NCBI GenBank assembly: GCA_963810095.1
Contig: CAWEMM010000007.1
Location: 160,001-224,000 of the forward strand
Direction: 5' to 3'
Origin: an uncultured Chloroflexia bacterium
Lineage (GTDB): Bacteria; Chloroflexota; Anaerolineae; CG2-30-64-16
DNA: 64,000 bases
A program made the translations under genes and the position numbers. The notes beneath the pieces were generated by a model that was not told the DNA's origin, made no database searches, and worked only from the letters and a program-made list of their open reading frames with translations. This document shows, one piece after another, positions 38 to 34,666 of the stretch (positions within the stretch are counted from its first letter, which is position 1; each line of letters opens with the position of its first letter).

Positions 38-3000
38 ATGGGGCAGGAGGAGAGGATGGCGTTTCTTAGTCGTCTCCGGGCGGGCGCACGGGGTTTCGCC
101 CCTGCAGCGCTGGTGAGGCACGGACGCGGCTTCCTCGTTGCGGCTGCCCTGCTGCTCGGCGCTCTGCTCCTTTCTTCCTGTGCACCCACGCAGCAGCTGG
201 GCCCCAGGCCCGGCCAGACGCCGCTCGACGCGGCCGAGATCTACCTCCAGCGCTACCAACCCGGCACCAATCCCCGCGTCTTCCAGACCACCCGCATCTT
301 CGACCGCAACGGCACCCTGATCGGGGAGCTGTGGAGCGAGGGCCGGCGCTCCTGGCTGCCGCTCAACCGTTTTTCCAAACAGTTGATCAACGCGACGATC
401 GCAGCCGAAGACTCGACTTTCTACAACAACACGGGCGTGGACACCGCCCGCGTGTATCGGTGCGGCGCTGAAGAATTACGAGGCAGGCGAGATCGTTTCC
501 GGCGCCTCGACCATCACGATGCAGCTTGCCCGCAACCTCTTCCTGGGGCCCGACCAGCGCTACGAGCAGTCGATGGACCGGAAGATGCTCGAGGCGGGCC
601 TGGCGCAGGAGCTGACCGAGCTCTTCACCAAGGACGAAATCCTCGAGATGTACCTGAACCTGGCGAATTACGGCCACCTCGCGTACGGGCCTGAGGCGGC
701 GAGCCAGGTATATTTCGGCAAGCCCGCGTCGCAGGCTGACACTCGCGGAGGCTGCCTTGCTGGCCGGGCTCCCCCAGTCGCCCGCGAACCTCGATCCCTT
801 CCAGAACCTCCAGGGCGCCAAGGCACGGCAGCGCACCGTGCTCGATCTCATGGTGCGCCACGGCTACCTGACCCAAGCCAAGGCGGACGCAACTTACGCG
901 GCGCCCCTGACGCTGAACCCCGACCCGGACCGCCGGGTCAACCTCGTGCCCCACTTCGTCAACTACGTGGCCGACGTGCTCGATGCGCGGCTGGGCGGCA
1001 GCGCGGGGCTGCGCTCGGGGCTGACGATCACCAGCACGCTCGACCTGCGCTTCCAGGCCTGGCGCAGGAGACGGTCGCGAAGCAGGTGAAGGCGCTCAAG
1101 CCCAAGCACGACCTGAGCAACGGCGCGCTGGTCGCCATGCTGCCCTACAGCGGCGAAGTTCTCGCGATGGTGGGCAGCGCGGACTTCAACGATACCAAGA
1201 TCGCCGGGCAGGTCAACGTCGCACGCAGCCTGCGCCAGCCCGGCAGTTCCATAAAGCCGGTGCTCTACGCGGCCGCCATGGACGACCTGCTGATCAGTCC
1301 GGCCACCGTGCTGTGGGACATTCCCGTGTCCTTCCCGATCACGGGCACCAAGCCTTACACGCCGCGCAACTACGACGGCAAGTTCCACGGGCCGGTGACC
1401 GTCCGCACGGCGCTGGCCAACAGTTACAACATCCCGGCCGTCAAGCTCCTCGACGCCGTGACCGTCGACCGCATGCTCAAGGGCGCGGAGTTGATGGGGA
1501 TCCGCAGCCTGTCGCAGTCAGACCGAACTTACGGACTGGCTCTGACGCTGGGCGGCGGCGACGTGACCCTGCTGGAACTGACGAACGCTTACAACGTGTT
1601 GGCGTCGGGGGGCCGGGCCGTGGCACCCGAGCCCATCCTGCAGGCGGTTGACGGTTACGGGCGGCCCGTGCTGACTGCGCGGCGCCCGGCCGGCGATCCC
1701 TTGCAGGCGGTGCGACCCAGCACCGCGTTCCTGCTGACGGATATCTTGAGCGACAACGATGCGCGCAAGCCGATGTTCGGGGTAAACAGCCCGCTGAAGC
1801 TCAGCCAGCCCGCTGCGGCAAAGACCGGCACGACCGACGATTGGCGCGACAACTGGACCCTTGGTTATACCCGCTATCTGGTGGCGGGCGTATGGGCGGG
1901 CAACAGCGACGGCCACCCGATGAAGAACGTGACGCGGCATCGCCGGTGCGGCGCCCATCTGGCATGACTTCATGGAGGCGGTGCTCAAGCAGCCCGACCT
2001 GCTCCGGGTAATCGGCGCAGCCGGTACCACGGACTCCGCGGCCTGGCAGTTTGAGCCCCCGGCCGACATCGTATGGGTGCCCGACGCGTGCCCCCCGCGG
2101 GTAACGTGCCGTAAGGGCGGCGAGATCTTTAGCACCGAGTGGATGGCGGCTGCCGGGGATGCAGGCCCCCTCGCAGACACGGTGATTCTGGCCCAGGCCG
2201 CGCCGGTTTACGTGGGCGGCGGGGGCTGGACGGCGTATTGCCGCACCGAGCCGGCCGCGCCGCGCGCGCTGCTCAGGCTGCCGGGGCCGCTCGGCATCAG
2301 CGGCGCCAGTGCAAGCGGGCCCGCGCCGGGGTCGCAGCTTGCCGCCAACTTGTCGCCGGACTCGGCGGCCGTCGCAGCCGGCCCCCGCGCGCCCCGGCAG
2401 GTCGATGTGCTGCGTGCGGTAGCATGGAGCCTGCGCACCCCCACGCCCGTCGACCTGGGACCCTGTGACCGGCTGGCGCAGACCGTGCGGGAATCAGGTG
2501 CGGGCGTTTCGGCCGGCGCGGATTTGAACGCGGCCGGGAATGCGGGCGCGGGCCCGTTCGCTGCGGCGGTGGCCTCGGTCAAGGGCATTGGCCCGACCCA
2601 GGCGCAGGCGCTGCTGCTCGCCGTGTCGCCCGCTTTGCCACCGGATGCGGAGCCCACAGTCGAGGCGACGCCGGCGATTGAAGCGACGCCCGCCGTGCTG
2701 GCTGCCGCGCCCGACTTCGGTTTCGCACTGGCCCGGGGCATCACGCACGACGACAACTGCGCTGGGCACTATATCCTGGGCTCCGTCATGGCGCGCAGCG
2801 GCGCGCCGATGCCGGGGGTTCATGTCGCGTTGGTGGACGAGTGGGGCAATCGGGCGGACGCGTGGAGCAAAGACGGCGTCACCGACGCGGGACGCTACGA
2901 CTTCCCGATCGGCTCGACGCCCAACCGCTACACGCTCACCATCATCGATGCCAACGGCGCGCCCGTGAGTGCGCCGGTGACGGTCGAGCACCAGCAAGGC

Positions 3001-3048
3001 TACGGCGGCACGCACCGCTGCCACACGATCATCTGGCAGGCGTATTGA
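38..3048 (+). CDS. Class A penicillin-binding protein (transglycosylase + transpeptidase) with C-terminal extension; split by several frameshifts
   Basis: Motifs spread over ORFs 38..694, 519..1967, 757..1089 and 1972..3048. Transglycosylase: AAEDSTFY, STITMQLARNLFL, ILEMYLN. Transpeptidase: RQPGSSIKP (SxxK), ALANSYNIPAV (SxN), AAKTGTT (KTG). N-terminal hydrophobic segment ends LLLSSC. Confidence 0.88.
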
Positions 3049-3070
3049 GCAACGCTGTGGTGACCCTTAC

Positions 3071-3110
3071 GAAACCGGGTTTCGCCTTCCATCGAAAGAA
3101 ACCCGGTTTC
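3071..3110. repeat. REP-like inverted repeat, family A (GAAACCGGGTTTC...GAAACCCGGTTTC); may also act as terminator
   Basis: Arms at 3071-3083 and 3098-3110 are reverse complements and are followed by a T-rich run. A related copy lies at 34176-34223. Confidence 0.75.
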
Positions 3111-3127
3111 TTTGTGTTTGTGTCAGT

Positions 3128-3145
3128 TCGTGTTAAACTACACAA
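3128..3145 (+). promoter_or_regulatory. Possible extended -10 (TGtTAAACT) overlapping a weak Rex-like palindrome upstream of fba
   Basis: TCGTGTTAAACTACACAA compared with the Rex consensus TTGTGAANNNNTTCACAA; several mismatches. Confidence 0.3.
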
Positions 3146-3176
3146 GATATTCGCGAAAGCTAACGAGGAGCACGAC

Positions 3177-15976: not shown

Positions 15977-18900
15977 ATGCGCGGGCAGAGAGGCGGCAGC
16001 AACGCTCTCGATCGGAGCGGTGGCCGGGGGAGCAGGCTCCCTGTGGCCATTGTCGGAGTAGGCGCGATCCTTCCTGATGCGCCATGTGCGCCGGCATACT
16101 GGCAGAATATCCGCAGCCGGCGGTACAGCATCACCGAGGTCCCCAGTGACCGGTGGCGGATCGAGGACTATTACGATCCCGATCCGAGTGTCCGGGATAA
16201 GACCTACAGCAAAATCGGCGCCTGGGTGCGCGGCTTTACATTCGACTGGAAGGGCTTTCGGATCCCGCCGAAAGTCGCTGCTGCCATGGATGAAGGGCAG
16301 CAGTGGGCGGTGACCATTGCCGCCGAGGCCCTTGCCGATTACGGGTATCCGGCTCGTTCGCTCGATACGGAGCGCACGGGAGTCATTCTCGGCGCCGCAA
16401 TGGGTGGCGAGCTTCATTACATCACCGGCCTGCGGGTTTTCTTCCCCGAGTACGCCAACGCGCTGGCCGCGGTGGATGAGTTCCGGTCGCTGGGCCACGA
16501 ACAGCGGGCCGCGCTCGTCCAAGGGCTGCGCGGCTGAGGTCGACCGCCGGATCCCCGGCATCAGCGAGGACAGCATGCCCGGCGAGCTGGCGAACGTCAT
16601 CGCCGGCCGGGTTGCCAACGTTTTCAATTTCCGCGGCCCCAATTTCATTGCCGACGCGGCGTGTGCATCGTCATTCGCCGCGCTCGAATCCGCGTGTGAT
16701 CTCCTGGCCCACGGCAAAGCCGACGCCGTCCTGTGCGGCGGCGTCGACCGCAACATGGGCCCCTCAACCTTCGTCAAGTTCTGCAAGATCGGCGCACTCA
16801 GCGCAACCGGCACCCGGCCTTTTGGAGAGGGTGCGGACGGTTTCGTCATGGGTGAGGGCGCGGCCGCGTTCCTGCTGCGCCGCCTGGACGACGCGATAGC
16901 CGACGGCGACAAGATCTACGCGGTCATCCGTGGCATCGGCGCGGCCAGCGACGGTAAGGGCAAGGGCATCACCGCGCCCAACCCACAGGGCCAAATCCTC
17001 GCGGTGCGCCGGGGCTGGGAAGACGCCGGGCTGGATCCGGCGACGTGTACGCTCGTCGAGGCCCACGGCACGAGCACGAAGGTGGGCGACGTCGTCGAGG
17101 TGAACAGCCTGAGCGAAGTCTTTGCCACGGCGCGGCGGGGCAGCATCGGGCTGGGCTCGGCCAAAAGCAACGTCGGCCATCTGAAAGCCGGCGCGGGCGC
17201 GGCGGGACTGCTGAAGGCGGTTTATGCCCTGCATCACAAGGAACTGCCGCCGACGCTCAACGCCGAGCGGCCGAACCCGGCCATCGATTTCTCCTGCACG
17301 CCGTTCCGCCTGGTCCACGAGCCGGCTGCGTGGGAGCCGGATGGTGGGCTGCCGCGGCGCTGCGGCGTCAGCGCGTACGGCTTTGGCGGCACGAACTTCC
17401 ACGTGGTGTTGGAGGAGTACCGGGCCGGGCGAACTCGAGCAGGCGTCGCGCAGGTGAGCAGCGAGCGTCCGGCGGAGGCCGGCAGGTAGTTTTGCCGGGC
17501 GAAGTCGAAGGAGCGGAACTGCTCACGGACCTCTTCGCATCCTTCGGCGCGCACCGCGAAACAGCGGGCGGGAAACGTCAGCGAAGCTGACGCCCGCTCA
17601 GATGCTGGCCGCTGCCACTCCGCGGCGTGCTGGCGCTTGGCGCGGATGACGCCCGCAGGGCTTACGGGGCAGTTGGACGAAGTCGCCGGCAAGGTGGCCG
17701 GCGGCTGGCTTCCGCCGCCGGCCGCGCCCGCCGCGGTCGTGCTGTCTGCAGCCGAGCGCCTGGTGGTCGACTTCAGCACGCCAGAGGAACTGATCGAACG
17801 GATCAAGGCCGCCCGACAGGCGCTGCAGAGCGAGCAGCCCGCGGCCTGGCGGGCGCTGGCAAACCGCGGCATCTTCCGCGGCCGGGGCGAACCGGCGGGG
17901 AAGGTGGCCTTCCTCTTCCCCGGCCAGGGCAGCCAGTACGCCAACATGGGCCGCACGTTCGCAGACCTGCCGCCGTTCGCCGCGACCTTCGCCGAAGCGG
18001 ACGCAGTGCTGACGCCCATACTCGGGAGGCCGCTTACCAGCTACATCTTCAGCGACCCTGACGATGCGGCCGCGCTGCGGGCGGCCGAAGAAGCGCTGCG
18101 CCAGACCGCCATCACGCAGCCAGCCGTCCTGACTCTCGACGTCGCGCTCTGCCGCCTGCTGGCCGCGTACGGTTTCGCGCCGGACATGGTGATGGGCCAC
18201 TCCCTGGGCGAGTATGCCGCGCTGGTCGTCGCGGGCGTGCTGCCCTTTGCCGATGCGCTCGAGGCTGCGGCGGCCAGGGGCGCAGAGATGACGCGGGTGA
18301 GCATGGAAGACAACGGCTGGATGGCCGCGGTGATGGCGCCCCTCGACGTGGTGCAGGACATTCTCGAAGGTGTCGAGGGATATGTCGTGCCGGCAAACAT
18401 CAACAGCCTGGGCCAATGCGTGATCGGCGGCGCAAGCCGGCCGGTCGAGGACGCGATTGCGGCGTTCAAGGCCAAGGGCTTCGAGGCGCAGCGCCTCCCC
18501 GTGAGCCACGCATTCCACACCGCGATCGTCGCCCCGGCCAGCAAGCCCTTGCGCCAGGTCCTCGACCGTCTACACGTGGGGCCCCCGGCGCTGCCGGTCA
18601 TTTCGAACGTCACAGGTGACTTCCATCCCCACGACGTAAAGGGCATTAAGGACTTGCTCGAGCAGCAGATCGCCTCGCCGGTCCAGTGGGTGTTGGGGCT
18701 GGATGCGCTGTACAGGCACGGGTGCCGCACCTACGTCGAGGTCGGACCCAAGCGTGCGCTCAAGGGCTTCGTGGACGAGGTGCTGGGGACGCGCGAAGGC
18801 GTGAGCAGTGTGTTGACCTGTCACCCGAAGACGGGCGAAGCGGCCACCTTCAACCAAGCGCTGTGCAGCCTGTGGGCAGGAGGGTACGGGCTTGGATCGG

Positions 18901-21900
18901 ATGAGCTTACTGGAACGATCAGGAACGGCAGCACGGTCCATCATTGGCGAAGCGGACGAAGAAACGGAAACACGCGTGAGGAGGATGGCGGCATGGTGGG
19001 CAGCAATGGATTGAATGGCCATCGGGATGTGCTATCGCGGGGCGGCAACGGAAGCTCCGCTGCAGTGGGTTCGCGCATTGCCACGGATGGGGTCGACGTG
19101 TTGGCGCAGGCGCTCGCCCTCGCGCTGGAGCGCATGAGTTCGGCGCCCGTTCAGGCCCCCGGCGCCCTCGCGGAACATGCGGCGCAAGCGCAGCCGGCGC
19201 CGGCTGCGCTTGCGCCGCACGCCGCGTTCCCCGCGCCCGCCCCGTGGGACCGGACGACCACACCCGCCGGCTCCGTCGTCATCAGCGGCACCGGCCTGGG
19301 CCTGCCCGGCACGGCCAAGCGCATCATGGACCCCGACAACGCGCTCCGCGTGCTGCGGGGCGAGCAGTTCATCGACCTCGTGCCCGAGCCCTTCCGCCGC
19401 GAGATGCTCGCCAAGCGGGTCACCCGGCTCGTCAAGTCTGCCGACGGCGGGGGCAGCTTCCAGGTGATCGCCGATCCCGACGAAGTGATCCGGCTCGCGG
19501 GCCGCGGCGGTCCGTTCGACCTGGCCGACGAATACGGCGTGCCACAGAAGCTAGTCGAGAGCCTCGACATCACGTCGCAGCTCGCCATGGCCGCCGGCCT
19601 CGACGCCCTGCGCGAGGCCGGCATTCCCCTGGTGCAGACGTGGCGGTCCACTTCGACCGGTAAACATCTGCCCGACCGGTGGCTGATCCCCGCCGCGATG
19701 CGCGATGAGACCGGCGTCATCTTCGCCAGCGTGTTCCCCGGCGGCGCGGCCCTTGCGGGGGAGCTTGAACGGTATTACCAGTGGGAGAAGCGACTGGATG
19801 CGGTCGAGGAGCTGGAGGACTTGCGCCGGTACGTCCGCGACTTCGATGCACAGGCCGAGATCTGCCGGCGCATCGCGCAAGCTGCGCGACGAGATCTCCG
19901 CGCAGCCGTACGAGTTCGACCGCCGCTTTATCTTCCGCATTCTCTCCATGGGCCACAGCCAGTTCGCCGAGTACATCGGCGCCCGCGGGCCCAACACCCA
20001 GGTTAATGCCGCCTGTGCGACGACCACTCAGGCCATCGCGCTGGCCGAGGACTGGATCCGTTCGGGTCGCTGCCGCCGGGTGCTTGTCATCGCGGGCGAC
20101 GACGTCACCGGCGACTCGCTGATGGAATGGGTGGGTGCGGGCTTCCTCGCATTGGGCGCCGCGGCCACCGACGACCGGGTAAGCGAAGCCGCGCTGCCCT
20201 TCGACCGTCGCCGCCACGGCACGATTCTGGGCATGGGCGCGTGCGCGCTGGTGGTAGAGAGCGAAGACGCCCTGCGCGAGCGCGGGATGCGCGGCATCGT
20301 CGAGTTACTGTCGACCGAGGCCGCGAACAGCGCATATCACGGGTCGCGGTTGGACGTGGACCACATCGGCGACGTCATGGAAGGGCTGGTCTCGACGGCG
20401 GAAAAGCGGTTCGGCGTCAACCGCTATGCGATCGCGCCCTACACCGTTTTTGTCTCCCACGAGACTTACACGCCGGCCCGAGGCGGCAGTGCAGCGGCCG
20501 AGGTCGTCGCGCTGCGCAAGACTTTCGGCGAGGCGGCCCGGCACATCGTCGTCTCGAACACCAAGGGTTTCACCGGCCATGCGATGGGCGTGGGGGTGGA
20601 AGATGTATTGGCCGTCAAGATGCTCGAATATGGCATCGTGCCCCCCGTCCCCAATTTCCAGGAGGTGGATCCCGATCTTGGCGTGCTGAACCTCAGCCGT
20701 GGAGGCAATTACCCGATTGCCTATGCGCTTCACCTGGCCGCCGGCTTCGGTTCGCAGGTCTCGATGACGCTGCTGCGCCGGGTGCCGGGCGGCCCCGACC
20801 GCGTTGAAGACCGCCTGCGCTACCAGCACTGGTTGGACGCGGTGAGCGGCTACGACCGGGCACAACTCGAAACCGTGCAGCGGGTGCTGCGCGTGCAGTC
20901 GGAGGACGGCCCGGGCCGCAGCCCGCAACCGTCGCAGTGGCGTCGTGGGCAGGGCCCTTGCGAACGGGCCGCAGCCCCCGGCGAAGGCATCCCCGGCGCA
21001 GTTCGTCCCGCGCCGCTGTGGAAAGTGGCCGACAAGCTGGGTGGCGAGGCGGGGAAGACGGTCACCACCGGGCGCGTGGAACACGAAGGCACTAAAGTGG
21101 CGGTGCGCGACGAGGCGAAGGAGATGGCACGCGAACACACGCAGGCGGTGGAGGTCACGGAGCGCGAAGGGGTGGCGAAGCGCAGCTTCGTCGACCCCAC
21201 CGGTGCCTCTTCCCGAGCCCTCTACGCCAGCGGTGTCCTCGGTGGCAGAACAAGACGCGGTCACGGCCAAGGTGCTGGAGATCGTGGCGGGCAAGACCGG
21301 TTATCCGCAGGACATGCTCGACCTCGACCTGGACCTGGAGGCCGACCTGGGCATCGACACGGTAAAGCAGGCCGAGACCTTTGCCGCCATTCGCCAGGCG
21401 TATGATATCCCGCCCCAGCAGGGGTTAAGCCTGCGCGATTACCCGACCCTCAAGTCGGTCGCCGGCTTCGTGCACAAGCTGCGGCCCGATTTGGCCACCG
21501 AGCGCACAGAGACTGCGACGAGAGGCGTCGAGCATTCTGCGCCCGCAGCAGTTGCTTCTCCTGCCCCTGCCGCCGCGCCGGTGTCCTCGTCAGTCGTCTC
21601 CGGGCCCTCGGTGTCCTCTGTGGGAATGGAGGACCCCGTCACGGCCAAGGTGCTGGAGATCGTGGCGGGCAAGACGGGCTATCCCCAGGACATGCTCGAC
21701 CTGGACCTGGACCTGGAGGCCGACCTGGGCATCGACACGGTGAAGCAGGCCGAGACGTTCGCCGCCATCCGCCAGGCGTATGATATCCCGCCCCAGCAGG
21801 GCCTGAGCCTGCGCGATTATCCAACCCTCAAGTCGGTTGTCGGCTTCGTGCACAAGCTGCGGCCGGACTTGGCCGAGGGGACTCCCGAAACGGAGGCCGC

Positions 21901-24486
21901 GCGCCCTTTTGAGGTGGCCGGGCCCGGCGAGGGGCCGCCCACAGCCCGGCCCGCGCTCCACACTATCGGAACGCTCGAGGATGCCGACCGCATCGCCCGC
22001 CGCGTTCCTCGGGCTGCCCTGCGTCCGGCGCTCGAGCTCTGCAAGCCGACCGGCGTGGTCCTCGAGCAAGGCAGCCGAGTGGTGGTCATGCTGGACGAAG
22101 GGTGTGTGGGCACGGAGCTGGCCCACCGTCTGGCCGAGGCGCGCGTCGAGCCACTGCTGCTGGAGCCCGGCATCGATACTGCGTCCTTAACCGAGCGGCT
22201 GCGCGAGTGGCAGGCACAAGGTTCGATCCAGGGCGTTTACTGGCTGCCCGCGCTCGACGTCGAGCCGTCGCTCGACAGCATGGACCTCTCGGCATGGCGC
22301 GAGCTGAACCGCCGCCGCGTCAAGAACCTCTATGCAGCCATGCGCGCGCTGTACGACGGGGTGGCTCGGCAAGGCACCTTCCTACTGAGCGCAACTCGCC
22401 TGGGCGGCCTGCACGGGTACGGCGAGGACGGGGCAACTGCGCCGCTCGGCGGTGCGGTCACCGGGTTCACAAAGGCCTACACGGCCGAACAGGGGCTGGC
22501 CGCGGCCGGCACCGGTGGAAGCGGTCCGCTGGTCAAGGCGGTCGACGTCGCCGCGGGCGTACCTGATGCCCAGGTGGCGCGCTGGCTCATTGGCGAGACC
22601 CTGGTCGATCCGGGGATCGTCGAGGTCGGCTACCGTGACGGCCTGCGCTTCACAGTCAACCTGGAGGAGGAGCCGGCGCGCGATGGAGGCGCAGGGCTTA
22701 GTGCTCGGTCCCGAGACAGTCGTGCTGGTCACGGGCGCGGCAGGCGGGATCACGAGCGCGATCGTGGCGGATCTCGCCGCGGCAAGCGGCGGAAGCTTCT
22801 ACCTGCTCGACCTCGCGCCGCTGCCTGCGCAGGACGACGAACATGTGCGACTGTTCTGCGCGGGCCGTGAGGCGCTCAAGCAGGCGCTGATCGAGGCTGC
22901 CCGCAGGGCCGGCGGCAAACCAAAGCCTGCCGAAATCGACCGCCAGATCGCGGCCGTGGAGCGCCAGGCGGCCGCGCTGGCGGCGGTGCAAGCCGTCGAG
23001 GCCGCGGGCGGAAAGGCCCACTACCGCAGCCTCGACTTCCGCGATCTCGCCGCGGTGGAGGCCGTCATCGACGAGGTGCGCGCCGCGCACGGCCGCATCG
23101 ACCTGCTGGTCCACGCCGCGGGCCTGTTGATCGATAAAACGCTGCCCGACAAGCAGCCCGAGCAGTTCGACCTGGTTTTCGACGTGAAGGCCGACGGCTT
23201 TTTCAACCTGTTGAAGGCAAGCCAGGCCCTTCCCATCGGCGCGACCGTCGCATTCAGCTCGGTTGCAGGGCGCTTCGGCAATAACGGGCAGGCGGACTAC
23301 TCCGCCGCCAATGACCTGCTCTGCAAACTGACCCACAACCTGTCACACTGGCGGCCGGCAACGCGGGGCATCGCGATCGACTGGACGGCATGGGGCGGCA
23401 TCGGCATGGCGGCCCGCGGCTCGGTGCCGCAAATCATGGAGGCACTCGGCGTCGACATGCTCCCACCCGAGGCAGGCGTGCCAACCGTCCGCCGCGAGCT
23501 GACCTACGGGGCCGCCCGTGGGCGAGGTGCTCATCGCGGGGCGGCTGGGCGCCTGGCTTGAGGAGCGCGATGCCAGCGGCGGCCTGGACCCGAACAGGGT
23601 GGATGCCGCGCTCGGCGCTCAGGCGCGACTGATGGCGGGCCGGCTGGTGGGGACACCCTCCCACGGTGGGGTCGACATCGAGACCACACTCGACCCCCGG
23701 GCACAAGCGTTCCTGTACGACCATGCGCCCGACCCCGACACGCCCTGGCTGCCCGGCGTGATGGCCATCGAGGCGCTGGCCGAGTCGGCGCAGCTGCTCG
23801 CGCCTGACCACCAGGTGGCGGCGGTCGAGGACGTCCGGATGCTTGGGGCCTTCAAGTTCTTCCGCATGGAGCCGCGCACGCTCCATGTCGCGGGAACGGT
23901 GAGGCCGGTGGGCGACGAACTCCATGGGTCCATGGTCCTGCGCTCCGTCACGCAGCCCCTTAGGCCCGAGATGCCGGCGCAGGTGAAGGAGCACTTCGTC
24001 GGAAAGGTCCGGCTCGCCAGGTCGGTCCGCGAGCCCGTTCGCATCTCGCCCGAGGCCGTCGTGCTCCCGGAGTCAGCGCTGACAATCCGGGCGGCCAGCA
24101 TCTATCCGCCCTTCTTTCACGGTCCGGCGTACCGTGTAGTCGACGGGGCCACGGTTGCAGGCGGCCGGGTCGTTGCCCGCATGACCGCGGGCTTACCGCC
24201 CCAGTCAGCGCCGGCCGGTGCGGCAACGCTCATGGCGCCCCGCCTGGTGGAACTTTGCTTCCAGGCCGCCGCGCTCTGGAGTCTGCAGACGGCGGGTGCG
24301 ATGGCCTTCCCTGCAAGCCTCGCCAGCCTGGTCGTCTATCGCCAGGAGCCTCAGGAACCCGCTGACCGGCTCTGGTGCACGCTGGAGACGGGTGACGGAT
24401 CGACTTTTGAGGGCCAGGTGGTGGACGAAGAGGGCAACGTGTACGTGGCGTTGAAGGGGTACCGAACGATCGCCAGGCCGGGCTGA
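15977..24486 (+). CDS. Stand-alone multidomain type I PKS/FAS, PfaA-like: KS-AT-KS-ACP-ACP-KR-DH; about 6 frameshifts
   Basis: KS1: [24 protein letters not shown]: [23 protein letters not shown]2: [25 protein letters not shown]. Two ACPs: [17 protein letters not shown]: [16 protein letters not shown]: FLYDH...LPGV plus a second hot-dog segment. AAGGAG RBS before 15977. Confidence 0.9.
21258..21875 (+). repeat. Near-identical tandem duplication of the ACP-coding sequence (about 21258-21497 and 21636-21875)
   Basis: Both copies encode [67 protein letters not shown](A/V)[11 protein letters not shown], with mostly synonymous differences. Confidence 0.9.
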
Positions 24487-27634: not shown

Positions 27635-30600
27635 CTAGCGCACGCTCACCGCGGAGGTGGCGCTGCCGCCCAGGCTGCTGCGCACCGTCACGTTCTGCGG
27701 GGCGGCCGGCAGCGGGAACGTGCCGCTGTACGTTGTGCCCTTAAGGGTCAGCGTGCCAATCAGCGCACCGGTTGCCGTGTCATACACCTTCAGAACGGCG
27801 TTGGACCCGGATGAGGTGGCGTCGACCAGCAGCGTGCCCTGCGACGTGCGATACAAGGCCCGCGTGATGCGGACGGTATCGCCGGCCGGCGCGCCGGTCG
27901 CTGTGCGGGTGGGCGATGGTGTCGCAGTCGGTGCGAGCGTCGGCGTGCGCGTCGGCGTGGCTGTGGCGGCAATCTGCGTCGGCGTCGGCGTACGCGTCGG
28001 CGTGAACGTCGGCGTCGCGGTGGCGCTCGCCTGCGTCGGAGTCGGCGTGAACGTCGGCGTCGCAGTGGCGCTTACCTGCGTTGGAGTCGGCGTGAACGTG
28101 GGCGTCGCAGTGGCACTCGCCTGCGTGGGCGTCGGCGTGAACGTGGGTGTTGCGGTTCCCGCCGACCCGAGGCTGAACGCCTCGTTGACGTCGGTGAACG
28201 CGGAACCGCCCGTGGGGCCGCCGCCCGCCACGTACACGACGCCGTTCACGGTTGCGGCCGAGGCGCCATGGCGCGGGGTCAGCATCGGCTGGAGCGTCCG
28301 CCACGTATTGGTGAGCGGGTCGTACTCTTCGTTTTGGCTGAAGGTTCCGCCCGAGGGCGTGCGCTCGCCGCCGATGAGCTGCGCCCGACCGTTGAGGTAG
28401 CCGGTCACCATCGTGCGCCGGCCCGTTGGCATCGGGCGCGCGCGGTCCACGTGTTGGTAGTCGGATCGAACATCTCGGCCGATGCGAGGGTGCCGTTGAC
28501 CTCTGTGCCGTCTGCGTTGCGCGTCCGCCCGCCAAACACGTACATCTTGCCGCCCAGAATTGCCGAACCCGGGTTGTCACGGCGCTCGATCATCGACGGC
28601 GCCGCGCTCCAGCTGTTAGTCGCCGGGTCATACACCTCGACGCTGTTCAGCGACGCGCCGTCGTTGCCCATCCCGCCGGCCACGTAGATCTTGCCGTTGA
28701 GCACTTGGGCCGTCGGGTCCGCCGCGCCCGGTCGCCATCGACGCCAGCATCGTCCACTGGTTCGTGGCCGGATCGTAGACCGCTGCGTTGGCGACTGCGC
28801 CGGTGAAGGCCGCGGTCGACCCGGCGAATACGTAGAGCTTGCCGTTGTACGATGTGACCGCAGGGTTCTCAACCGCCGGGTACGAGGTGGGCAGGTCGGG
28901 TCCCTGGCTCCACACGTTCGTGGCGGGATTGTAGATGTACAGCGTGCGCTGGTGAATGTCGCCCGTGATTTTGCCGGCAACCGAGTAGAGCTTGCCGCCA
29001 AGCTCGGCGCCGCCCGCATCGAGCAGGGAGACCGGCATCTTCTGCTTGACAGTCCAGGCGCCCGGCGCGCTGCTCGTCGGCGAGGGTGTCGGGGTGACGG
29101 TCGGCGTCGACTGTGCGAAGCCGGCCGGGATCAGCGCGGTGACGCGCTGCGCGCCCAGCTCGCCCACGAAGATCGTCCCGTCGGGCGCCTGCGCCAGGGG
29201 CAGCGGATCGCTCAGCCCGCCCGCCAACTGCGTCGCCTGCAAGACGGTCGTGCCGTCGGCCGAGAGCTTGATGCGGGTGATGTCGTCGCCAACCGAGTAG
29301 TTCGCGACGAGGACTTCACCCTTCAGGGTCCCGTCAAACGCGTCGGCCGTGTACTCAATCGTCCCATCGGACGAAGTGTTCATGCCCATCGTGTGAATCG
29401 GGTTGAGATAGTTGGCTGCGGGCGAAACACTCTGGTAGTGGCCGTCCTTGAAGATGCACTCGTTCCGATAGGGATTCGGATGGCCGAACGTCTTCCCCTG
29501 GATCAACCGGTGGAAGAGATCAGGCTGGATGCCCGGGTTGTCGCCGCCCTGGGTCCAACTGGTCGTATCGCCGTAGCCTTCGCACGGCGGCGTCGGGTTG
29601 GGCGGGAAGCTCCCGGTCACGCCCAGGCCATTGTCCGGACCGTAGGCGTTGCCGTTCGAGTGCCAGACGAAGTCGTACATGTTGCGCAGGCCCGAAGAAT
29701 ACACCTGTACGCTGCAAGGCGAAGGGCCGTAAGTGTTCTCAGGCGTCGCGCAGGTCCCGTCGAAGCCGGCTGCCTTCACGTCTGCCACCAGGAACGCGGC
29801 CGACAGCGGCTGTTCGGCGCGCGTGCCGAATTCCGTATTGGCGGTGTTGGGCGCGCCCGCGCCGGTGTTGCCGCCATTGGCGATGTACAGCTTGCCGTCG
29901 GGCCCAAAGTGGACCGCGTTGATCGCATGGTTGGCGATCGCGCGCGGCAGCCCGGTGATCACGTCCTGGCGCGTTGCGAAGTCCGCGCCCGAGAGCCTCG
30001 TCACCGTGCTCGAGTTCAGCTCGCCGTTATCGGTCGACGGGCTGGAATGGGAGACCCACAGGATGACGTTGCTGGGCGTCGATGCGGGATCCACGGTAAT
30101 GCCGAGCGTGAGTCGCGAGCCCAGCGTCGTGATCACCTGGTCGGCCGTGACCTGCTTGGCGCTGTCGAGCGTGAGTGCATGGATCTTGCCGAACATCTCC
30201 GTGACATACAGGCGGTTGTCCGGCCCCCATACCATGGCAGTTGGGTTCGGGATGGGGAAGCTGACGCGGTTGAAGTTGAGGTCCGACGTCGAGCCGGTCG
30301 TAGTTTCGGCGGTCACCGAGAAATCGTCGAATGCGTAGGTCAAGGCGGCCTGGCTGTACCGGTGCGAGGCGAAGACGCCACCGAAGCTGCGGGTGCCAAT
30401 CGCGGGATCGATCCCCGCGGCGTCGAAGCTGAAGAACTCCCCGGGCACGATGAACGTGCCCAGTTGGGTCAGGTCTGCGCCGTTGATGCTGAAGTATGCG
30501 GCGACCGTCCGGTCCGTCGGATTCGCGCGCAGACGCAGGTTGACGCGGGACGTTGCGACCGAAAGCGGCCCGGTCACGAACGAGCCCGTGCGGACGCCGC

Positions 30601-31864
30601 CTGATTCGAAGAGGTATTCGATGCGGGTCGTCGGGCCAGGCTCCGACAGGATTTCCAGCTTCAGGTAGTTGTCCTGGTCGTTGCCGAACCAGAGGCCGCC
30701 CTGCTCGTAGTTGCCCGTGCCGACGGGTGGGTTCACCACCGTGGTCTGGATGAGCGAGATCTGGTCGGGCGCATCCACGCCGACCGCGAGCGCGTTGTCC
30801 TGCGAGTTCGAGGTCCCAAACATCAGACCCTTGGTCGTGGTGACATTCAGCGTGCCCGTGCCGCTGGTGTCCACCCGCAGGTTCGCTGGGATATAGCCCG
30901 TCCCGTTGGTCGGCTGATCGATGTAGGTGAAGCCTGTGCCCACCCCGGCCCCATCGACGATTTTGCCCGCGTCTGTCGCGAAATCCAGCGTGTAGGGCGC
31001 GTGCACCAGGATTTCCGAGCAGGCCAGGGGCGAGCAAGTCGTGGCTGCAGCAACGTCAAGCGTCACGGTCGTCGTCGCTGCCGCGACCCCGTCGCCCGCG
31101 GCGGTCACGGTCGCAGTGTAAGCGCCCGGTTGAAGCCCGGAGGCGTCGACATTCAGCGTTCGTACTGCCGGCGTGCTTCCCTTGCGCCCGTTACCGAGCG
31201 GCTGGGGCGCCTCGAATGTCAGCCACGGGGCGCTGCTCGATAACTGGAAGTTCGCGTCCTTGCCATCGCTTGCGAAAATGCGCAGGGTCTTTTCATCACG
31301 CCCGCCCCGGGTCACATTGAAGTGCAGGCGCTCGGGGCCGAAGAGCAGCGCCCGGGGACCGTTGTGCGCCTGGAACTGCACGCTCTCCACTGCCGTCGAA
31401 CCATCGTTCAGGTCGATGGCGGCAATAAGTGTGTGCGGGCCGTTCGCCAGGGCGGCCGTGTCGAAGCCGCGGGGCTGCGCGCTCGCGTCCAGCCCGCCCA
31501 GGTCAAACGGCGGCTTATCCGCGACCGCGTCCGGCGTGAGCGCGGCAAGCGTGCCTTCCAGCGAGTCTTGTGCCGGGTCAATAAAATATCGCACGCGTGC
31601 GACCCCGGCGGGCGGGGTGACGAAGATGTAGGCCCTGCCCGAGAGGACGGCGACCTCGTCGAGTGCGACATGCCCGCCCCGGTTGGCCGAGCGGCTGATG
31701 TGGAGGCGGTAGTCGGCATGGCCGGCCTGAGCAGCCGCTGCCGCGGGCTTGGATGCTGCGCTTGGTGCGGCCGCACCCGAACTCGCCGCGGGGAACGCCA
31801 CCGCTGCGATTAGCAGGAGCGCAAGCAGCGCGAGGTAAGGACGAAGTTTGCTCGTTCGAGCCAT
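27635..31864 (-). CDS. Secreted multidomain protein: Ig/BACON-like, lectin-like, glucose/sorbosone dehydrogenase-type beta-propeller, Kelch repeats, Pro/Thr linker, small C-terminal domain; 2 frameshifts
   Basis: Signal peptide MARTSKLRPYLALLALLL. GSDH-type motifs PTAMVWGPDNRLYV, HFGPDGKLYIANGG, SSGLRNMYD. Kelch motifs GKLYVFAG, GKIYVAGG...VEVYDPATNSW, PRHG. Confidence 0.82.
27999..28156 (-). repeat. 45-bp coding tandem repeat, about 3.5 copies (ATATPTFTPTPTQAS)
   Basis: Repeat unit begins GGCGTGAACGT on the + strand every 45 nt; no unique spacers. Confidence 0.85.
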
Positions 31865-32060
31865 GTGAACCCCTTTGCTACGGGAATTGAGTCTGCGTGG
31901 CAACAACTACTGAAAGCCTGCCTGGCGCGCTATATTATGATTGCTATGTCTGTCTCGGTCATCGCCCCAATGACGCACGTTGGTGTAAGGCTTTTGTCTG
32001 CGTAGTGAACATCGGCACAAATAATTGAATGTCGGACCGGGACGAGAAGCACGGCAGTCG

Positions 32061-32126: not shown

Positions 32127-34165
32127 ATGCACGACGGAGGTTGGTGGGCGTTTATACGCTATGACGAAAAGAGCGATAAGCCGCGAATCAGCGGCCCTTT
32201 GCTGCGCCGCGCACTGCGTTATGCCCGGCCTTACCGGGGCAAGATCATTGCGATGTTGGCCTTGGTGGTGGTGATCACGCTGCTTAACCTGATTCCGCCG
32301 CTGTTGACCCGCGCCTTGATCGACCAGGCGCTGCCGAACAAAGACCTGCGGCAGCTGACGCTGCTGGCGTTCGGCATGCTCGCAGTGCCGCTGGTGACCG
32401 GGTTGCTCGGCGTGGCGCAACGGTATTACAACGCCACGGTGGGCGAAGGGGTGATCAGCGACCTGCGCACCGGGCTGTTCAGCCATCTGCACAGCATGTC
32501 GCTGCGCTTCTTCACCAACACGAAGACCGGCGAGCTCATGTCGCGCCTCAACAACGACGTCATCGGCGCACAGCGGGCCGTTACCGGCACTTTTATCGAC
32601 CTGTTCGCCAACGTGATCACGCTGGTCAGCGCGCTGATCATCATGCTGAAGCTCGACTGGCGCCTCACGCTGCTGGCCGCCGCGGTCCTGCCGCTGTTCC
32701 TCATTCCCGCCCGGGTGCTGGGCAAGCGCGTTCGGGCGACGGTCCGCGAGCAGATGACCCTCAACGCCGAGATGAATGCGATGATGGACGAGACGCTCAA
32801 CGTCTCGGGCGCCCTGCTCGTCAAGCTGTTCGGCCGCAGCGCCAGCGAAGTGGGGCGATTCCGCGCGCGCGCCGAGCGGGTGCGCTGGGCCGGCGTTCGC
32901 AATTCCTACCTCATGCGCTGGTTCTTCCTCACCGTCAGCCTGATCAGCGCAGTGGGCACGGTCGTCGTGTTCTGGGTCGGCGGCTTGCTCGTGATCCAGG
33001 GCCAGTTCACGATCGGGACCGTGGTGGCGTTCACGGCCTACCTCGGCATGATGTACGGGCCGCTGTCCGCACTGACGAACGCGCGCATGGACATCTCGGC
33101 CTCACTGGTCAGCTTCGAGCGGGTCTTTGAAGTGCTGGATCTGCCGCAGGAGATCCGTGAGAAGCCCGGCGCGCTGCGGCTCGACACGGTGCAGGGGCAG
33201 GTGGAGTTCGCAAAGGTGTCCTTCAGTTATCAGCCCGGCGAGAGCGTGCCCGGCGCCACCGCCGTCGGCCTGAGCGAAGTGTCACGTTTTGGTTGGGGCG
33301 GCCACGGCATGAGCGTGCCGCTTTCGCAGGAGGGCGGGAAGCTCGAAAAGCGGACGCCCGTGACCGGACCCAAGAACGGCGTCCAGGCTGCGCCGGGCGC
33401 AACTGAGCCGCCCGGCGCTCGACGCAGAGAGCGACGACACGGGCACGCTTGGGGAAACGCGGTGGGCGCTGCGCGACGTTTCCTTTGCGGTCAAGCCCGG
33501 CCAACTGGCCGCGCTTGTGGGTCCGAGCGGCGCGGGCAAAACGACAATTACCTACCTGCTGCCCCGGCTCTACGACCCAACGAGCGGCTCGATCTGCATC
33601 GACGGGCACGATCTGCGCGATCTGACCCTGGAGACGCTTGCCGCCCAGATCGGCATGGTGACCCAGGAGACCTACCTGTTCAACGACACCATTCGGGCGA
33701 ACCTGGTGTATGCCCGCTCGGACGCGACGGATGCGGAGATCGAGGCTGCCTGCCGGGCCGCGAACATCCACGACTTCATCGCGGAGTTGCCCGAAGGCTA
33801 CGACACCGTGGTCGGCAACCGGGGTTACCGCTTGTCCGGTGGGGAGAAGCAGCGCATCGCCATCGCCCGGGTGATCCTCAAGGACCCGCGGATACTGGTG
33901 CTGGACGAGGCCACGTCATCGCTCGACAGCCAGTCCGAGGCGCTGATCCAGGAAGCGCTCGAGCGCATCATGCAGGGCCGCACGAGCCTGGTCATCGCCC
34001 ACCGGCTGAGCACCATCCTGGCGGCAGACATGATCCTCGTGCTCGAAAAGGGCCGACTGGTCGAGCGCGGCACCGCACGCGGAGCTGCTCGCGCGGGGCG
34101 GGCTGTACGCGTCGCTCTACGAGACGCAGTTCAGGTACGCGCGCGAGGGGGACTTGGCCGGTTAG
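32127..34165 (+). CDS. ABC exporter, fused permease + ATPase (MdlB/MsbA-like); frameshifts near 33420-33460 and 34075
   Basis: TM domain with [12 protein letters not shown]; Walker [10 protein letters not shown]; LSGGEKQR; [11 protein letters not shown]; IAHRLST. Confidence 0.9.
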
Positions 34166-34175
34166 CGGCCAAAGA

Positions 34176-34223
34176 GAAACCAGGTTTCTGCACTCCGGAT
34201 CAACTGAGGCGAAACCTGGTTTC
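34176..34223. repeat. REP-like inverted repeat, family A
   Basis: GAAACCAGGTTTC (34176-34188) and GAAACCTGGTTTC (34211-34223) between convergent genes. Confidence 0.75.
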
Positions 34224-34238
34224 CTAGACCCGCAGAGA

Positions 34239-34666
34239 CTAAGCGTCGTCGCGTTCGGGGTTGTCGAAGCGGAAGAAGTTGCTCTGGTTCCCGTTCTTCA
34301 GGTTCTCCTGGAAGAGCATAATCAGGTTCCGCTCGTCGAACGTCCTGAACCAGTCGTCCCAGTTGACCTCTTCGAGCCGTCCGGTATCACCGCCGGGGAA
34401 GTCAAACCGTAGAACGCCAGCCGCTCGCCATGCTCGGTGCCGCTAACGGTCGCGGGCACGGCCCCGCGTTCCTCCGCCCACTTCATGATGACCTCATGAT
34501 TACGCGTGACGAGCGACTGCCCGTCGTGTTCCGCGTGCTCGTCCGGGCCGCCAATCCACTTCGACCGCCGCGTCGAGTCGGAGAGCTTATCGCCCCACTT
34601 CTTCAGGTACTTCTTGTCGTCGTCCGAAACTCGCTCAGGCAGTTCTTTGCTCGAGAACTGTGTCAT
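34239..34666 (-). CDS. Conserved hypothetical protein; frameshift near 34420
   Basis: VTRNHEVIMKWAEERGAVPATVSGTEH continues in a shifted frame as LRFDFPGGDTGRLEEVNWDDWFRTFDERNL, a recognisable small uncharacterised family. Confidence 0.7.

Follow-up and report, generated by a model that had tools for sequence, protein, structure and literature searches.

Can an acyl carrier protein (ACP) bear its 4'-phosphopantetheine arm on threonine instead of serine? Textbooks treat the serine of the carrier motif as universal, pattern-based annotation requires it, laboratories use its change to threonine as a dead control, and to our knowledge serine is the acceptor in all solved complexes of a phosphopantetheinyl transferase (PPTase) with a carrier. 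The question is raised by a gene of an uncultured Chloroflexia bacterium (GenBank assembly GCA_963810095.1), which lies in a 64,000-nucleotide stretch of contig CAWEMM010000007.1 (positions 160,001 to 224,000 of the forward strand); this whole stretch is referred to as the window, and positions are counted from its first letter. The gene (15977..24486, plus strand) codes for a PfaA-like megasynthase of the Type R type with the domain order ketosynthase (KS1), acyltransferase (AT), second ketosynthase-like domain (KS2), two ACPs, ketoreductase (KR) and dehydratase (DH). An earlier reading of the DNA without database searches, here called the sequence-only reading, had noticed threonine in both ACPs and had argued against base-call error and simple decay.

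Threonine in both carrier units

Direct reading of the sequence bore out the first claim. ACP unit 1 (21254..21496, plus strand) reads ggc atc gac ACG gta aag at 21350-21367, with the threonine codon ACG at 21359-21361, and unit 2 (21632..21874, plus strand) reads ggc atc gac ACG gtg aag at 21728-21745, with ACG at 21737-21739. Each unit is 243 nt long; 19 nucleotides differ between them, making 15 synonymous and 2 non-synonymous codon changes, so that ACG has been read twice independently. Together with the family-wide occurrence of the threonine described below, this upholds the view that a base-call error is unlikely.

Both units were recognised as carriers by the Pfam PP-binding profile PF00550, which matched the window in two stretches (E 7.3e-14, 52.2 bits, cut-off 20.8). 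The profile score of a canonical carrier is thus reached, while the serine of the (D/E)xGxDS motif is absent and threonine is present in both units. In an alignment with the solved PigH carrier domains, the serine of their DLG(V/I)DS motif falls on the window threonine. We also compared the gene with environmental contigs, not reads, of four metagenome runs, which contained 0.10-0.15 of the sampled words. No variant of codon 21737-21739 is among the differences listed for these contigs, 24 further differences standing outside the list; one contig (X3 record 21, 21709-22042) spans this codon and differs from the window only at 21937. The first threonine codon is reached only by the last letters of a single contig.

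The threonine is conserved throughout the family

The same genome has a paralogue of the gene on another contig, C9, which is 67% identical over the ACP region and contains three units, all reading GIDTVKQAE. When 41 relative genomes were searched, a match was obtained in 8. Asp-Thr occurs in every unit of the loci from G000, G001, G004, G007, G008, G012 and G031, encoded by ACG or ACC, and the two units of G003 are of the canonical PfaA type (LGIDSIKRVEI).

Among 1.84 billion representative proteins, 6032 matched at E ≤0.001. The best 150 of these and two added relatives provided 152 proteins with 586 ACP units, in which the attachment residue was threonine in 393, serine in 184, gapped in 6 and something else in 3. 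By protein, 105 were all-Thr (103 of them among the 150 best representatives), 37 all-Ser and 10 mixed or gapped. To avoid selecting on threonine, we also chose loci by KS2. At least 582 KS2-relative stretches were present in a one-genome-per-species collection, and the best 80 of them, all from other species, were surveyed; 16 gave no scorable ACP unit, most ending soon after KS2. In the loci chosen in this way, threonine was found in 225 of 230 ACP units and serine in none, the remaining five units being cut by contig ends. All four threonine codons are used (ACG 117, ACC 78, ACT 24, ACA 6); serine is one base change away, yet it was never found. The 80 loci come mostly from Chloroflexota, and also from Acidobacteriota, Myxococcota, Binatia and others.

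The family-wide conservation of GIDT that the sequence-only reading had wished to see checked is therefore found, with threonine throughout close as well as distant homologues. In 42 aligned ACPs, E29, A30, D31, G33, D35, T36, V37, K38, Q39, A40 and E41 are invariant, giving the block E-A-D-x-G-x-D-T-V-K-Q-A-E, and there is no conserved serine column in this alignment. The attachment residue and the one behind it covary: threonine precedes Val in 382 cases and Ile in 11, serine precedes Ile in 174 and Val in 9, with counts that are inflated by kinship; a compensation of volume where helix II begins may be the reason. Judged from these comparisons, the threonine is a family signature and not an error or a mark of decay.

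Threonine also goes together with the second ketosynthase. KS2 was present in 42 of 44 Thr-type proteins of at least 1500 residues (the exceptions are P0024 and P0128), compared with 0 of 20 long Ser-type proteins. In a quick tree of KS1 from 44 proteins, for which the first KS was taken where a protein has two N-terminal KS domains, the Thr and Ser labels need two changes, one change is compatible with the supported branches, and none of 500 shuffles was as low. The Thr type thus appears clustered in the KS1 tree, and its single origin is a possibility. Extra Thr-type units were seen at the N-terminus or between KS1 and AT in P0090, P0136, P0104 and P0123, and the few units with serine or alanine are all degenerate end units (P0038, P0145, P0024).

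Gene neighbourhood and the cluster PPTase

In the relatives, the synthase gene is immediately preceded by one for an acyl-CoA dehydrogenase of about 550 residues and immediately followed by one for an Sfp-type PPTase, after which a carboxyltransferase often comes. Neighbourhoods were counted in 68 of the 80 loci, the 12 in which the KS2-cysteine pattern was unmatched being omitted. Where there was enough flank, the dehydrogenase was present upstream in 52 of 52 loci; on the downstream side, 35 of 47 loci had a PPTase at 3-8 kb from the KS2 cysteine and 28 of 47 had a carboxyltransferase. A PPTase was matched by its HMM in 43 of all 80 loci. The 35 downstream PPTases have the motif GxDxE in 34 cases and WSxKE(A/S)xLK in 32, the misses including a frame-broken open reading frame. 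When both strands of the KS2 loci were scanned, no other PP-binding domains were found. Five genomes lacked a PPTase in the flank that was retrieved; all five have one elsewhere, scoring 193-243 bits, in three cases just past the flank.

Across the 41 relatives, the PPTase score is bimodal: nine genomes reach at least 195 bits and the other 32 score at most 92. The high-scoring type is present in 7 of 7 Thr-ACP genomes versus 2 of 34 others, namely G026 and G016. G026 does have the synthase, with the ACP region missing from the assembly. Its locus (L111, G026:C71:1-12000) aligns to residues 1-1700 and 2286-3175 of a relative, with about 100 nt between them in place of the tandem ACPs. The probable cause is the collapse of repeats during short-read assembly, and a carrier-less form of the synthase is still conceivable. 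The PPTase of G016 (L110, G016:C4:45456-46157) is Type R-like, scores 258 bits and adjoins a two-component system.

The genome under study contains one complete Type R cluster, on C9 (C9:242826-257998, L024), with an acyl-CoA dehydrogenase, the synthase with three Thr-ACPs, a PPTase (C9:253683-254390) and then three proteins reminiscent of a DevCAB-type lipid exporter: an FtsX-type permease, an ABC ATPase and an HlyD-like protein. The PPTase downstream of the synthase, a feature of Type R clusters, is thus found beside the C9 paralogue and is lacking beside the window copy. Upstream of the latter lie genes for exonuclease III and a NUDIX protein, and downstream of it one for a PAS/GAF histidine kinase, so the window holds an orphan synthase copy and not a full cluster. 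PPTases of this genome were located at C9:254049, C11:143717 and C7:16331 (the last is AcpS and lies outside the window), none of them near the window copy. The cluster on C9 has therefore kept a third PPTase besides AcpS and a PPTase of the Sfp type linked to nonribosomal peptide synthetase (NRPS) genes. The latter is the PPTase at C11:143717; it belongs to and follows an extensive NRPS-type region (C11:78000-144000) in which at least 15 carrier domains are encoded.

A model of the PPTase with the carrier

The C9 PPTase was modelled together with ACP unit 1 of the window, CoA and Mg. The predicted complex scored 0.62, the best control 0.02. Of 157 solved complexes, 116 reached the mark used for docking, as did 2 of 215 mismatched pairs. 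Contacts agreed between runs to at least 94%, and the pLDDT of the partner was at least 83. In the model, Thr36 contacts W166 and E170 of the WSAKE motif, so that the motif threonine is set against the glutamate of WSxKE, as in the known complexes of Sfp-type PPTases with carriers (4MRT; AcpS-ACP, 1F80), and the profile of the cluster PPTase matches both the AcpS and the Sfp chains. As PPTase-carrier complexes have already been solved, such a docking pass may show likeness and not binding.

How the threonine may be loaded

The sequence-only reading had offered three options: pantetheinylation on threonine, another tether or free CoA thioesters, and ACPs acting only as docking domains. Of these, the first is favoured over the other two by the conservation of the cluster PPTase and by the docking model. 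On the strength of the sequence comparisons and the modelled complex, it seems to us somewhat probable, and the most economical account, that the cluster's own PPTase phosphopantetheinylates the threonine. The threonine and its conservation, the domain layout, the neighbouring genes, the co-occurrence with the transferase and the purifying selection are observed; we infer the modification, the enzyme responsible and the reason for preferring threonine.

The gene codes for an iterative PfaA-like lipid or polyketide megasynthase, Type R, with the order KS-AT-KS2-ACPn-KR-DH, in which the serine of every ACP unit is replaced by an invariant threonine whose hydroxyl would be the attachment site of 4'-phosphopantetheine. 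The Sfp-type PPTase that travels with the cluster would load this threonine, and the PPTase beside the C9 cluster would serve the orphan copy of the window in trans. Threonine carriers and cluster transferase would form a private pair. Why threonine should be used is a matter of speculation: it may insulate the carriers from AcpS, other PPTases or hydrolases, it may make the phosphodiester more resistant to beta-elimination, or it may constrain the geometry of the arm. More tentative is the wider proposal that O-(4'-phosphopantetheinyl)-threonine occurs naturally in hundreds of species, where it would be loaded by a co-inherited PPTase lineage forming with its carriers a pair orthogonal to AcpS and Sfp; we consider this plausible and stop short of calling it probable.

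Several observations weigh against loading by the cluster PPTase. In 12 of the 47 loci, no PPTase was found within 3-8 kb of the KS2 cysteine. G016, a genome that is 97% complete, has the PPTase type, and a search of it for a Type R synthase found none. The window copy of the synthase has neither PPTase nor dehydrogenase as a neighbour. An examination of the PPTase motifs and a profile search against the PDB revealed no residue that deviates from the canonical Sfp type and could explain the acceptance of threonine. The upstream enzyme belongs to the acyl-CoA dehydrogenase family, so intermediates might be bound to CoA. Finally, in the pair that has been studied best, the S36T mutant of Escherichia coli ACP is described in the text of PMC3340395 as not modifiable and unable to complement. 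The substitution and its position in the motif are the same; there both modification and function are lost, whereas here it is the conserved wild-type state.

The last two points also speak for the view that the Thr-ACPs are never modified and serve in docking or scaffolding, with intermediates carried as CoA thioesters or non-covalently, and with AT, KS2 and the dehydrogenase acting on free thioesters. The presence of the dehydrogenase directly upstream in every locus that could be scored and a weak match of KS2 to PF08545 (KAS III) are in keeping with this. We nevertheless consider it unlikely: two to six tandem units with an invariant block of 11 residues are hard to explain as a dock, and a PPTase that is catalytically intact by its motifs has been retained where the only local carriers are the threonine units. 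Moreover, drift at a disused site should yield alanine, glycine and asparagine too, while residues other than threonine or serine were found in only 3 of the 586 units.

It is rather unlikely, too, that the threonine is pantetheinylated as a neutral frozen accident, any Sfp-type PPTase loading threonine or serine alike with no private pair. This would agree with the canonical catalytic motifs of the PPTase, with the one genome that has the PPTase type and no synthase, and with rare serine units in Thr-type proteins (TTTTS in P0038, STT in P0145). Both serine units, however, sit in degenerate or truncated end units, and the neighbouring residue covaries with the attachment residue, though kin are not independent. 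The absence of serine from 225 units in several phyla, with all four threonine codons in use, argues for selection of threonine over serine.

That the threonine is linked to something else, be it a different prosthetic arm or an acyl group in direct O-ester linkage, is very improbable. All that can be said for it is the absence of a precedent for threonine-linked pantetheine in the literature searched, while the PPTase is the only modifying enzyme conserved in the cluster, no genes of the CitX/MdcG type were seen in the annotated flanks, and a direct ester would have no arm to reach six active sites.

A widespread family has fixed threonine at this site and keeps a dedicated transferase. If the threonine is loaded, this would be a new post-translational linkage, the acceptor specificity of PPTases would be switchable, and a ready-made orthogonal pair for labelling or tagging would be at hand. 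If it is not, a catalytically complete megasynthase would do without a pantetheine arm, an even stranger outcome. The matter concerns a Type R lipid pathway without an assigned product, whose hosts are abundant bacteria of soil, sediment and wastewater.

Domains of the synthase and related systems

The domains of the window gene, all on the plus strand, were mapped by Pfam on frame pieces and by tblastn, the gene being split over several frames; the putative start is the ATG at 15977 in the list of open reading frames. KS1 extends over 16043..17440, with DAACASS at 16653-73, EAHGT at 17058-72 and KSNVGH at 17163-80. It is followed by the AT domain (17910..18761; PF00698, E 3.1e-40), which has GHSLGE at 18195-18212, and by KS2 (19326..20775, the end being approximate), with NAACATT at 20005-25, SHETYTP at 20455-75 and GFTGH at 20566-80. 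Behind the two ACP units lie the KR domain (22719..23396; PF08659, E 3.1e-25), with TGAAGGI at 22731-51 and YSAAN at 23298-312, and a PKS-type DH domain (23503..24483; PF14765, E 1e-14). Catalytic motifs were found in KS1, AT, KS2, KR and DH. The claim that the rest of the synthase looks catalytically intact stands as far as these motifs go; the frame breaks of the assembled gene had been overlooked, as had the second ketosynthase, the Type R family and the complete paralogous cluster elsewhere in the genome.

Pfam, tblastn and the domain mapping of relatives show in the window gene the Type R order of KS, MAT, a second KS ('CLF'), tandem ACPs and KR. The Type R secondary lipid synthase was described by Shulse & Allen (2011, PLoS One 6:e20146, PMC3098273) as a pfaA homologue with the order KS-MAT-CLF-ACP(3-6)-KR, followed by a PPTase that groups with the hShxH group; according to the main text of that paper it occurs in Acidobacteria, Elusimicrobia and Chloroflexi, sometimes with an acetyl-CoA carboxylase gene in between, and has no assigned product. 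The loci of our relatives agree in having KS2 between AT and the ACPs and a PPTase and a carboxyltransferase downstream. They differ in the upstream acyl-CoA dehydrogenase, which the main text of PMC3098273 does not list, and in KS2, which in the window retains Cys-His-His though it was named 'CLF' there. The window copy differs further, with only two ACPs and without the dehydrogenase and PPTase neighbours. The words 'threonine' and 'serine' do not occur in the main text of the 2011 paper.

PfaA of polyunsaturated fatty acid synthases (TIGR02813) is a further related system. Scored as a whole protein, the intact relative P0003 reaches 1247.4 bits, above the model's cut-off of 1010.1; this figure is for the relative, the window gene being split by its frame breaks. 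Common to both are KS-MAT, tandem ACPs and KR-DH, and the ACP motif is otherwise nearly identical (DLGIDSIKRVEI against a 12-residue counterpart). In contrast, the canonical PfaA-type proteins in the sample have serine in every unit and no KS2. None of the partners pfaB, pfaC and pfaD was seen, and the acyl-CoA dehydrogenase stands at the place expected for the enoyl reductase.

In the open-access literature searched, subscription journals being largely outside it, we found nothing on a natural threonine at the carrier site or on threonine-linked pantetheine, and the 2011 paper was the only work found on the Type R family. The gene family is known, then, and its invariant threonine appears not to have been described previously.

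Frame breaks in the assembled gene

The assembled gene is not one open frame. A tblastn search with the intact 3175-residue relative P0003 gave a collinear match that spans the gene in frames 2, 3, 1, 2, 3 and 1, and together with frame reading it revealed at least seven frame changes. The five breaks mapped by tblastn are all +1 shifts, on the plus strand like the gene: at 16519..16539, at 19877..19880, at 21018..21179 in the linker between KS2 and the ACPs, at 22695..22702 and at 23520..23525. At least two more changes lie in the linker between KS1 and AT (17420..17651, plus strand), where a conserved stretch of 13 residues sits in another frame than its flanks. The in-frame stop at 17487-89 in this linker is only apparent, since it falls in an off-frame stretch.

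The environmental contigs bear on four of these sites. At all four covered breaks, near-identical contigs have one base fewer than the window: at 16531, at 17651, at 19877/8 (contigs of two runs, at 19877/19878) and at 23520. A third contig at 19877/8 (X4, depth 9.06) shows no deletion, but reaches the site only by the 22-letter end of a joint. Around 17420-17590, at 21018-21179 and around 22700 there was no usable contig cover.

Similar breaks are present in other genes of the window and the genome. A class A penicillin-binding protein at 35-1964 of the window has its transglycosylase domain scattered over three frames, an ABC exporter at 32127-34409 is broken between its membrane and ATPase halves, near 33400, and in the same genome the AcpS gene at C7:16331-16652 and a YqeC/MobA gene on C6 are likewise frame-split. 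In the C9 paralogue the frame changes at least twice, and perhaps once more near the 3' end. This breakage points to single-base insertion errors throughout the assembly.

Comparison with the orthologue in the congener G007 gave dN/dS values of 0.10 for KS1, 0.23 for AT with its linkers, 0.09 for KS2 and 0.21 for the ACP-to-KR linker, at a dS of about 1.0-1.2; the KR segment was ignored, with 45 aligned codons only. The gene is under purifying selection, and synteny of the locus and its flanks extends to G001:C35 and G007:C58, with a nucleotide identity of 70-81%. Intact Thr-type genes of about 3000 codons, likewise under purifying selection, were found, in line with the earlier judgement that simple decay is not the explanation.

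We rejected the pseudogene reading on the off-frame position of the stop, the shorter contigs, the like breakage of other genes and the dN/dS of 0.09-0.23. That the threonine codons, or the whole gene, are a product of sequencing error or decay is hardly credible: the number of frame breaks, the apparent stop and a genome 88.5% complete in 16 contigs could be cited for it, but every covered break is one base longer in the window, the mapped shifts all go in one direction, unrelated genes are broken alike, the locus is kept in two congeners, and the threonine is family-wide. We conclude from these comparisons that the breaks are single-base assembly insertions and that the window gene is functional.

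Elsewhere in the window, a protein of 1092 residues is encoded on the minus strand at 28628-31906; it is similar to glucose/sorbosone dehydrogenases, contains Kelch repeats and is unrelated to the threonine finding.

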